Shown: in pieces, positions 43,842 through 51,196 of the stretch | Numbering within the stretch: the first letter of the stretch is position 1 | Layout: each line of letters starts with the position of its first letter | NCBI GenBank assembly: GCA_043820815.1 | Contig: JBDRDJ010000008.1 | Span: 1 to 54,674, forward strand | Direction: 5' to 3' | DNA from: Candidatus Omnitrophota bacterium | GTDB taxonomy: Bacteria; Omnitrophota; Gorgyraeia; Duberdicusellales; 4484-171 | DNA: 54,674 nt | Notes under the pieces: generated by a model | Databases searched by the model: none | What the model was told of the DNA's origin: nothing | Seen by the model: the letters and a program-made list of their open reading frames with translations, nothing else | Program-made: the position numbers and the translations under genes

Positions 43842-43917
43842 TTGCTCAAAAATAGTTATTTATTCTTCTCTCTGTCACGCAAGGGGTTACAGCATATATA
43901 TATTTAATTAGAATTCT

Positions 43918-43933
43918 TGGCACGAAAAATGCT
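43918..43933 (+). promoter_or_regulatory. Sigma-54 (-24/-12) promoter
   Basis: TGGCACGAAAAATGCT versus consensus TGGCACG-N4-TTGCW, one mismatch. Confidence 0.75.
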
Positions 43934-44017: not shown

Positions 44018-44203
44018 ATGAGGGCCGATAAGAAAATGACAATAACCGAAGTTGCCGAAGAAATTGGAGTGGTTCCCAAAACAATTCAAAGGTGGGAAAA
44101 GTCAGGAAAAGTTAAGAGAGCCAAAAGAGACTGGCGCAACTGGAGAATCTATACGTATAAAGAGGTCGAACAGTTAAAATACTTTAGAAATAACGTTTAC
44201 TAA
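44018..44203 (+). CDS. Stand-alone MerR-like HTH protein (copy 3)
   Basis: 61 aa; TI.EVAEEIGV..KTI.RWEK.G....KR....WR.Y; SD GGGGG. Confidence 0.85.
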   Translation: MRADKKMTITEVAEEIGVVPKTIQRWEKSGKVKRAKRDWRNWRIYTYKEVEQLKYFRNNVY

Positions 44204-44242
44204 TAGACATCCTATAACGAGAAAACACGAGAAGGATGTCTT

Positions 44243-44673
44243 GATTACATAGATTAGAGAATAGATTACAGTGATTAAAGAGAGAGATCCTTTAACTGAG
44301 AAAATAATTGCATGCGCCTATAGGGTACATAGTAAACTAGGCCCTGGATTTAATGAAAATATCTATCATAGCGCTTTAAAAATAGCTTTAAAAGAAAAGG
44401 ACATAAACTATGAAACTGAGAAAAGTTTTAATGTATCTTTTAAGAGTAAAAATGTCGGTAAATTCAGGCTAGATTTAGTAATAGAAGATAAGGTTGTAAT
44501 TGAAATTAAAGCTATAAACGGAAATATTCCTGCCGTGTTTGAGTTGCAGGTGCTGTCATATTTGAAAGCGTCAGGGTATAAGGTTGGACTATTAATAAAC
44601 TTTGGCAATAAAAGCTGTCAGGTTAGAAGATTAATGGTTTAATCTCTGTAATCTATTAATAATCGTTGTAATC
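44243..44673. mobile_element. Candidate inverted-repeat-flanked GxxExxY cassette
   Basis: Arms 44243-44276 and 44641-44673 pair at 28/34 positions and overlap the start and stop codons of the enclosed gene. Mobility is inferred. Confidence 0.5.
44271..44642 (+). CDS. GxxExxY protein (PD-(D/E)xK nuclease-like)
   Basis: LGPGFNENIY (GxxExxY), RLDLVIEDKVVIEIK, Q.LSYL..S....GLLINFG. Confidence 0.92.
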   Translation: MIKERDPLTEKIIACAYRVHSKLGPGFNENIYHSALKIALKEKDINYETEKSFNVSFKSKNVGKFRLDLVIEDKVVIEIKAINGNIPAVFELQVLSYLKASGYKVGLLINFGNKSCQVRRLMV

Positions 44674-44721
44674 AGGTATAATCCAGATATTACTTGTTGT
44701 GATTATACCAGGAGGAAGACA

Positions 44722-45435
44722 ATGGGACGAAACATTAAGTTATTTGTTACCGCAGGTTTGTTAATTTTATCTTTGTTAATTATTGGTAATGGTATGAGCC
44801 AGGAATCAGGCATCACCGCCAAAGCGCCGGATACTGAGATAGCCGGAGAATCTGCCGTATACACTCTGGGAAAAGGCGATATTGTTGAGATTCTTGTCAG
44901 GAACCAGCCGGAATTTAGCGGTATATTTGCAATCGGGCCTGACGGAAATATCCAGTACAATTTTGTCGGGGATATTAAGGCAGAAGGCATGAATAAATTT
45001 GAGCTGCGTGATTCTATCGCTGATAATCTTGATCGTTATGTAAAAAACCCCGATGTGAGCGTAACCATAGCCCAGTATTTAAGTAAGTTTGTTTACATTC
45101 TCGGAGAAGTGGGGCGTCCCGGAAAATATCCGATGAAAGGCGATACTGTTTCATTGAGAGAGGCAATCGTAACAGCCGGCCTTCCTACCAGGGACGCTGC
45201 CTTAAGGCGAGTCTATGTTATTGAGCCTGATGAGGCAAAACCGGCTTCAAAGAAAATTGATTTATTTTTAATTTTGTATAAGGGTATTTTAAAAGATGAT
45301 TTAACTCTAAACCCCGGCGATTTAGTAGTTGTTCCTTCTACGGTTCCCAGCGAAATCAACAGGGCTTTGACAAATCTGCTTTCTCCTGTCAGCCGTGCGG
45401 CAACGGTTGAGGCTTTAATAAGCAGGGCAAATTAA
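44722..45435 (+). CDS. Polysaccharide export protein (Wza-like, SLBB)
   Basis: Signal peptide; Y.LG.GD.V.I.V, I.PDG.I, V..P.VSV, VYILGEV.RPG.Y. Confidence 0.92.
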   Translation: MGRNIKLFVTAGLLILSLLIIGNGMSQESGITAKAPDTEIAGESAVYTLGKGDIVEILVRNQPEFSGIFAIGPDGNIQYNFVGDIKAEGMNKFELRDSIADNLDRYVKNPDVSVTIAQYLSKFVYILGEVGRPGKYPMKGDTVSLREAIVTAGLPTRDAALRRVYVIEPDEAKPASKKIDLFLILYKGILKDDLTLNPGDLVVVPSTVPSEINRALTNLLSPVSRAATVEALISRAN

Positions 45436-51139: not shown

Positions 51140-51162
51140 CTGTACTTATTTTTAGAAACTAT

Positions 51163-51196
51163 AATCACTGTAATCCGAATCTAATCGGCGTAATCA
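51163..51196. repeat. Solo arm related to the GxxExxY flanks
   Basis: 25/34 identical to 44641-44674; its first 13 nt are the exact reverse complement of 44264-44276. Confidence 0.65.

Follow-up and report, generated by a model that had tools for sequence, protein, structure and literature searches.

A GxxExxY nuclease gene in an intercistronic cassette bounded by terminal hairpins in a Candidatus Omnitrophota operon

The window analysed here, a stretch of 54,674 nucleotides from a Candidatus Omnitrophota bacterium (contig JBDRDJ010000008.1, our C8), carries within an exopolysaccharide (EPS) operon a cassette of about 505 bp (44205-44709), in which a small gene coding for a nuclease-like protein of the GxxExxY family is framed by inverted repeats. 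The order is hairpin H1, left arm, gene, right arm, and hairpin H2, directly followed by the Shine-Dalgarno sequence (SD) and ATG of a polysaccharide export gene (Table 1). We lean, with moderate confidence, towards the cassette being a selfish or formerly mobile intercistronic element with a nuclease directed at the cassette's own unit arrays and hairpins; both its movement and cleavage by the protein are what we infer from the comparisons below. It belongs to a family of very widespread intercistronic cassettes with one small RecB/Cas4-like nuclease gene, of which we found no description in print. The source is a metagenome-assembled genome (MAG) of 1.57 Mb (77% complete, GC content 39.7%), placed in Candidatus Omnitrophota by its protein matches.

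The helix-turn-helix (HTH) gene upstream of the cassette and the export gene downstream are kept as a pair in six genomes of other genera of the same family or order, where only 10 to 20 nt, essentially just an SD, lie between the HTH stop codon and the export ATG. These empty sites all come from other genera, none of them conspecific, and searching with the exact sequences of the two flanking proteins turned up no further strain. On this comparison of orthologous loci the cassette is shown to be an insertion between the HTH stop codon and the SD of the export gene, in agreement with the discrete inserted cassette proposed in the initial annotation. That annotation had bounded the element by its two arms; it extends past them, out to H1, which begins 2 nt past the TAA of the HTH gene and ends 1 nt short of the left arm, and to H2. 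A second copy (on contig C15, ahead of an amidotransferase gene) occupies a site at which the element is absent in 10 relatives.

Each arm consists of two 14-mer GATTACNNNGATTA units, 20 to 21 nt apart, with GATTA pentamers phased at about one helical turn (9 to 12 bp). The gene is embedded in this frame: its GTG start falls inside the second left-arm unit, at a position kept as GTG or ATG in homologues, its TAA stop codon is the beginning of the right arm, and the left-arm spacer AGAGAATA occupies the place of the GAGGAG ribosome-binding site of relatives. The inverted arms holding start and stop codons are as first described, and a local alignment of one arm against the other (32 matches in 38 columns, one gap) is consistent with the 28 of 34 positions counted initially. 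A repeat search of the window recovered the arm cores as inverted repeats I1, I8, I9, and I13, and the window contains 8 occurrences of the 14-mer GATTACAGNGATTA (1.9 expected). With a flank-complementarity score of 43 the gene ranks fourth among the 1768 open reading frames (ORFs) of at least 100 aa in the whole genome (mean 15.7, standard deviation 3.2), a ranking that rules out a chance inverted repeat. The complementarity of the arms derives almost wholly from the shared repeated units and not from a continuous stem. Between partner arms (12 pairs, strict pattern) the spacers are about 24% identical and often of unequal length, and the central trinucleotide (NNN of GATTACNNNGATTA) is identical at 67%, which reflects the shared unit consensus. 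On the selfish-cassette reading, the inverted-repeat complementarity would be a by-product of two inverted binding-site arrays rather than a selected RNA stem.

The two hairpins recur in cassettes from many phyla. H1 precedes the left arm in cassettes of several phyla, with at least five kinds of compensatory variant, and H2 has been conserved downstream of the right arm in this genome (9 copies) and in about 28 cassettes of other phyla, with four kinds (Table 1). Because the stems are maintained by double, compensatory changes, both hairpins are, on this comparative evidence, real terminal structures. The SD core lies 0 to 1 nt past the hairpin, and the start codon no more than 11 nt on (mostly 4 to 9), in 36 of 40 parsed hairpins; three of the four exceptions are parse errors or chance matches. 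All seven family-A copies of this genome have this hairpin-SD-start layout, and the native stop-to-SD spacers at the empty sites are 1 to 6 nt. Random insertion followed by selection should leave variable remnants, yet the junction of ATTATACC with AGGAG is invariant, which suggests integration or recombination at the SD itself. In many H2 hairpins the 3' half is duplicated (GGTATAAT-loop-TTTATACC-TGANG-ATTATACC), which allows two alternative pairings just before the SD; examples are in L081, L084, L086, L094, L122, and L156 and at C15:23684 and C20:88865 of this genome.

Table 1. Coordinates and sequences of the cassette, its terminal stems, and related features
Feature	Coordinates	Strand	Description
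Terminal hairpin H1	44205..44241	+	aGACATCCT, 19-nt loop, AGGATGTCt
Left arm GATTACATAGATTAGAGAATAGATTACAGTGATTA	44243..44277	+	Units GATTAC-ATA-GATTA and GATTAC-AGT-GATTA, 21 nt apart
GxxExxY / PDDEXK_3 gene	44271..44642	+	123 aa; GTG start 44271-44273, TAA stop 44640-44642
Right arm TAATCTCTGTAATCTATTAATAATCGTTGTAATC	44640..44673	-	Units GATTACAACGATTA and GATTACAGAGATTA (minus-strand reading), 20 nt apart
Terminal hairpin H2	44675..44709	+	GGTATAATC, loop, GATTATACC; TATAAT on both strands
SD and start	44710..44724	+	AGGAGG 0 nt after H2, 6 nt, ATG (44722) of polysaccharide export gene
Cassette terminal stems (sequence)			H1 GACATCCT/AGGATGTC; H2 GGTATAAT/ATTATACC
H1 compensatory stem variants			GGCATCCT/AGGATGCC, GCCATCCT/AGGATGGC, GATATCCT/AGGATATC, GAAATCTT/AAGATTTC, GACATCCC/GGGATGTC
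H2 compensatory stem variants (four kinds)			GGCATAAT/ATTATGCC, GGTATAAC/GTTATACC, GATATAAT/ATTATATC, TGTATAAT/ATTATACA
Solo GATTAC arm (GATTACGCCGATTA / GATTACAGTGATTA)	51162..51195	-	Gap before gene starting 51202; no nuclease gene
PF05635 gene	C4:59794-60174	+	
PF05635 genes	C23 25319-25669 and 22311-22694		Counted on the reverse complement of C23

The initial annotation saw in the arms an mRNA hairpin with the gene as its loop, resembling an intervening sequence (IVS). As a full alternative, this would be an RNA-level device: the arms pair in the operon transcript, the gene loops out, and a double-strand-specific RNase clips the stem, as in the ORF-bearing IVSs of 23S rRNA, with H1 protecting the upstream cistron at its 3' end and H2 protecting the downstream one at its 5' end and presenting its SD. 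Polarity would be limited in such an arrangement, and the start codon of the cassette gene would be masked. In the minimum-free-energy fold of 44195-44725, H1, the arms, and H2 are indeed paired (z = -5.6), solo arms in this genome are biased in orientation relative to transcription (19:5, p = 0.007), and the strong co-orientation with the downstream gene and the fusion of H2 to the SD are regularities at the transcript level. There is also a parallel in the Coxiella 23S rRNA IVS, which is 428 nt long, has a 28-bp terminal stem and an internal ORF, and is excised by RNase III (PMC4990558), and the PF05635 genes of this genome, considered below, are framed alike. However, the non-complementary spacers of unequal length imply selection on the units and not on pairing, and among single mismatches in the hairpins A-C is at least as frequent as G-T on the sense strand; a G-U bias in H1 and H2 was looked for and none was found. 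Moreover, the most multiplied derivative lacks the left arm, the cassette has no Rfam match, and the device accounts for tolerance of the insert but not for its dispersal.

Excision of the RNase III type, as in the rRNA IVS, is unlikely, since the RNase III models (PF14622 and PF00636) give no match here (genome 77% complete) or in 22 of 24 relatives (18 relatives are at least 90% complete), and the same profiles match in 8 standard bacteria used as controls. A different RNase might act instead, and H1 and H2 may have a stabilising role. The lineage may be without a canonical RNase III; the two positive relatives have short ORFs of 157 and 185 aa. We consider the RNA-level device unlikely overall, and the intervening-sequence claim is weakened accordingly. 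The transcript nonetheless matters for where cassettes can survive, because co-orientation is strict and H2 is fused to the SD.

The same two-unit pattern occurs as 40 arms in the 1.57-Mb genome, nearly all in short gaps between co-directional genes, and there are three intact GxxExxY genes (in the window and on contigs C11 and C23) against these roughly 40 arms. The right-arm 34-mer of the window, exact or with one base changed, is present at six other loci. At seven loci a right arm of this kind is combined with H2, AGGAG, and a start codon (ATG), each time of an unrelated gene. Copies differ little over the 78 nt that run from the right arm to the SD, and stubs retain remnants of nuclease coding sequence. 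One copy (C7:1995-2182) still has its two arms, and its gene carries an internal deletion and two stops. A deletion junction joining AAAATAGCC to TTGATGGTT is common to six copies with unique flanks at each locus, and five of the six, the stubs, also share a junction of GATTA with AAAATAGCC that removes the left arm. Independent decay would not give the same two junctions five times, and for this reason a defective derivative must have multiplied from locus to locus, either by moving or through gene conversion between copies already in place. The minimal selfish cassette of the initial annotation stands insofar as relatives and decayed copies are present in the same genome; its mechanism is conjectural, and no movement has been seen.

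The arms could in principle be transcription-factor operators in a portable promoter or leader module, with the nuclease gene an incidental passenger. The helical phasing of the GATTA pentamers at 9 to 12 bp, the position of arms ahead of genes, and a perfect TATAAT in H2 are what such operators would offer. A promoter scan, however, detects nothing sigma-70-like at H2, where by eye, too, no usable -35 can be made out, the stubs hold nuclease coding remnants, the arms are tied to one protein clade across phyla, and many lie between convergent or tightly packed genes with gaps of 3 to 14 nt. This explanation seems to us very improbable.

Other arrangements of the repeats were also observed in this genome. 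The solo arm within the window (Table 1) has no H2 or obvious SD between it and the downstream ATG. Foldbacks of 94 nt with four GATTAC-type units are present at C2:11239-11332, C7:51971-52064, C10:32211-32304, and C11:24736-24809, with a GGGAGTTTC...GAAACTCCC hairpin on one side and a ATGGACATTCCCCAAAATACAGG module on the other, and variants at five more loci have lost exactly one arm and the loop. There are weak Y1_Tnp (IS200/RAYT-like) matches at C4:63874-64170, C25:94429-94593, and C13:39748-39933 (best 38 bits, 263-aa open frame), and as far as checked none adjoins GATTAC arms.

The association of gene and arms extends beyond this genome. Among 61 relatives, 25 have GATTAC-type arms and 19 have PF13366 genes, with both in 17, arms only in 8, the gene only in 2, and neither in 34 (Fisher p = 2.4e-7); a reversed-pattern control gave 0 matches in all 61 genomes. 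The possibility that other GxxExxY genes lack inverted-repeat flanks is not borne out, as most have them: the second intact gene of this genome (C11) has the same framing with CACGAAT units that also occur scattered through the genome, in the third (C23) there is an ACAGGAT array on the start side only, and most intact genes in relatives have inverted unit arrays of the types CACGGAT, CGCGGAT, CGCAGAT, CACAGAT, and CGCTGAT. In a protein tree all nine GATTAC-framed proteins, from eight genera, form one clade (support 100/97), and other branches have CACGGAT, CGCGGAT, CGCAGAT, or CACGAAT units. That one clade has one unit type fits a cognate relation between protein and site. More than 1600 homologues of the window protein are found at E<=1e-10, most on contigs of about 1 kb or less, and the GATTAC clade, at 50 to 79% identity, is present in MAGs labelled Omnitrophota, Planctomycetota, WOR-3, Elusimicrobia, Nitrospirota, Nitrospinota, Ratteibacteria, Desulfobacterota, Clostridia, and others, and its copies sit in different operons. 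In 45 of 60 intact cassettes the stop is followed within 140 nt by a co-directional gene that has an SD. The nearest homologues (74 to 81% identity) are in four unrelated operons, always co-directional, and the decayed copies precede seven different genes; the earlier suggestion that the gene spreads by nuclease action on empty sites, as in homing, sits poorly with these placements.

We note that relative G041, with a 1.4-Mb genome, has 22 PF13366 matches, mostly fragments with stops, making it a cassette graveyard. In L123 / L041 (G001 C2:144123-144757), a GxxExxY gene of the GATTAC clade is followed downstream by three tandem copies, at 114-nt spacing, of a right arm plus a GC-rich palindrome GCGCAACGCGCGC. 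A cassette in L073 (2077-3352; 78% protein identity) sits between divergent YlbF-like (PF06133) paralogues with 34% aa identity and has the same H1 and H2-SD ends.

These distributions also bear on a nuclease-repeat partnership kept by the host, in which the few intact GxxExxY genes would serve the cell by cutting at dispersed units or hairpins, for instance in control of incoming DNA, recombination, or repeat upkeep, with the framing serving autoregulation or co-inheritance. The ratio of three intact genes to about 40 arms, the strong arm-gene association across genomes, and positions that are stable across samples would all suit a partnership of this kind, and there are precedents in the Ssn genes (GIY-YIG), flanked by repeats that Ssn cuts as single-stranded DNA (PMC11893778), and the RAYT genes, flanked by REPs or terminal inverted repeats (TIRs) (PMC3733652). 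The gene is, however, patchy among genera (19 of 61), decayed genes are frequent (in one relative most of the 22 PF13366 matches are fragments), the site is empty in all close genera, and transfer across phyla is evident. Patchiness, decay, empty sites, and transfer all suit selfish DNA better than a host function, and we think a host-kept partnership improbable.

The encoded protein matches, at full length and above the curated cut-offs, both PF13366 (E 2e-36, 125 bits, cut-off 22) and TIGR04256 GxxExxY (E 5e-38, 130 bits, cut-off 35). Its motifs are G26-F-N-E29-N-I-Y32, D68, E78-I-K80, and Q93-xxx-Y97; in an alignment of 32 homologues E29, E78, K80, Q93, and Y97 are invariant and D68 is nearly so, corresponding to the RecB-family motifs. 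The AlphaFold2 model (pLDDT 93.4) has as its best PDB neighbours in Foldseek Cas4 SSO0001 (4ic1), the AddAB nuclease domain (4ceh), MGME1 (5zyt), and lambda exonuclease (3slp), with probability 1.0 and TMq of 0.46 to 0.62. A Cas4a2 profile matches weakly, and the protein is half the size of Cas4 and lacks its Fe-S cluster cysteines. The PD-(D/E)xK-like nuclease recognised at the outset is well supported by motifs and model, and with a confidently predicted fold the protein would be a minimal RecB/Cas4-like nuclease, a relative of Cas4 but not a Cas4. Cas4, AddAB, MGME1, and lambda exonuclease act on single-stranded DNA or DNA ends. A PDB sequence search gave no match, PADLOC and PHROGs searches gave marginal matches only, and PF13366 is the only domain in the cassette, with no match to a DDE, HUH, or serine transposase, TnpA, TnpB, or GIY-YIG. 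The family is listed without a known function, and searching the literature for GxxExxY, PDDEXK_3, and PF13366 gave passing mentions only, with no structure or function found in print; a 2012 survey of PD-(D/E)xK enzymes notes only multiple transfers (PMC3424549).

If the cassette is a selfish element, the nuclease may bind the phased units on both arms, much as a transposase binds multi-site ends, and cut close to the terminal hairpins or right at them; its Cas4/MGME1-like fold makes single-stranded DNA the probable substrate. The unit would then be copied into new stop-to-SD gaps by host repair or replication, and stubs would persist because the downstream gene had come to depend on the H2-SD junction. 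Several observations weigh against this reading. A hydrolytic PD-(D/E)xK nuclease alone cannot join DNA, and at the cassette junctions (TAAt next to AGACATCC, and ATTATACC next to AGGAGG) no direct repeat and no target-site duplication are visible. The shared deletion junctions could also come from gene conversion between copies that were already dispersed, and simple linkage, too, would make gene and arms share a phylogeny. Arms are present without a detectable gene in the eight relatives counted above. The identical proteins P0063 and P0009 keep the same context in 8 and 7 independent samples, respectively; over population time scales the elements stay in place, and no movement was observed in those samples. 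Finally, the framing is not peculiar to a nuclease, as PF05635 genes, which do not code for nucleases, are framed alike, and this cautions against the nuclease as motor.

A bolder proposal goes further, making GxxExxY cassettes autonomous mobile elements of an undescribed kind, with two hairpin termini, a sole 123-aa enzyme reading the adjacent units, and precise stop-to-SD integration (about nine in ten at ATTATACC next to AGGAG) that would let them reside in operons and leave these intact, and with the 23S rRNA IVS as a four-helix-bundle branch of the same class. We hold this to be quite unlikely.

The parallel with PF05635, the '23S rRNA intervening sequence protein' family, is seen in this same genome, where three such genes are among the ten best inverted-repeat-framed ORFs of the 1768 (Table 1). 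They are framed by inverted arrays of their own short units, of AAAAT/TAAAAT-rich, AATGACGA, and GGTTAAGG types; at least two of the three are directly followed by an SD and start codon, and none is in an rRNA gene. This framing links the cassettes to classical intervening sequences.

The nearest published kinds of element are the ORF-bearing rRNA IVSs, REP/RAYT, and Ssn with its NTS repeats. Like the 23S rRNA IVSs of Coxiella and Leptospira (S23p/PF05635), the cassette is an element of about 430 nt with one small ORF and terminal inverted repeats beside the ORF ends, and both are patchy, horizontally acquired, and located inside a host transcript. In contrast to an IVS, the cassette lies in an mRNA intercistronic gap between protein genes and not in an rRNA helix, its ORF codes for a nuclease rather than a four-helix bundle, and its arms are phased units with non-complementary spacers where the IVS has a 28-bp near-perfect stem; the IVS is also excised by RNase III, which is not detected in the cassette's lineage. 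REPs and REPINs with their RAYT genes (REPtrons) share with the cassettes a few enzyme genes framed by an inverted short repeat that is dispersed, mostly gene-less, in intergenic regions, mainly between co-directional genes, with different cognate repeats for different enzyme lineages. They differ in that RAYT is an HUH/Y1 transposase able to cut and rejoin whereas the cassette enzyme is a PD-(D/E)xK hydrolase, REPs are GTAG/CGTC-tagged palindromes whereas the cassette units are phased 14-mers, and the cassette is bounded by two different conserved hairpins and sits directly against an SD.

Ssn with NTS/SRM repeats is likewise a small stand-alone nuclease gene with a hairpin-forming repeat on both sides and genome-wide, and with a specificity that co-varies with the local repeat. 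The cassette protein, however, has a RecB/Cas4-like PD-(D/E)xK fold and not GIY-YIG (cd10448), is known from sequence and a model, and forms with its arms an insert that decays and multiplies. IS200/IS605 elements and miniature inverted-repeat transposable elements (MITEs) are comparable in their small size, different subterminal hairpins at the two ends, lack of target duplication, precise junction by a short motif (AGGAG for the cassette), and multicopy deletion derivatives, but the cassette has no TnpA, TnpB, or DDE gene, inverted unit arrays are absent from IS200/IS605, and transposition of the cassette is conjectural. Free-standing homing endonuclease genes of phages are also small nuclease genes between conserved co-directional genes that are absent at the same junction in relatives; the homologues of the cassette are at unrelated loci, however, and its framing arrays and gene-less copies have no counterpart there.

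PF13366/GxxExxY is a very large family, and the anatomy of the cassette points to likely substrates for it, namely GATTAC units, H1, and H2. Should the cassettes prove mobile, they would rank with the smallest known mobile elements that are self-contained and would illustrate how such DNA can live within operons, at stop-to-SD junctions. They also provide a route into the puzzle of how ORF-bearing rRNA intervening sequences originated. Their repeats break metagenome assemblies, and through the stubs unrelated genes have acquired new 5' leaders. A minimal sequence-specific nuclease could also be a tool, like the Ssn enzymes.

The operon setting is as initially proposed, with a sigma-54 motif (TGGCAC-N5-TGCT, 43917-43931) and export genes. 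The motif lies upstream of the HTH gene, which codes for a 61-aa MerR/BldC-like protein and has its TAA stop at 44201-44203, and is kept at three orthologous loci; downstream of the cassette are polysaccharide export and chain-length genes of the XrtA/PEP-CTERM type. As the cassette is co-directional with the operon, and scans of it show no sigma-70-like promoter and no intrinsic terminator, it is most likely transcribed together with the operon. Elsewhere in the genome, the highest flank inverted-repeat score (54) belongs to a gene at C4:38854-39678 (+) coding for a 274-aa PaaX-like protein with a Cas2-like central domain, which has the same palindromic block of about 45 nt, AAACATAACATTAGAATCGACGACCGTTCATTCTAATGTTAT, before and after it.

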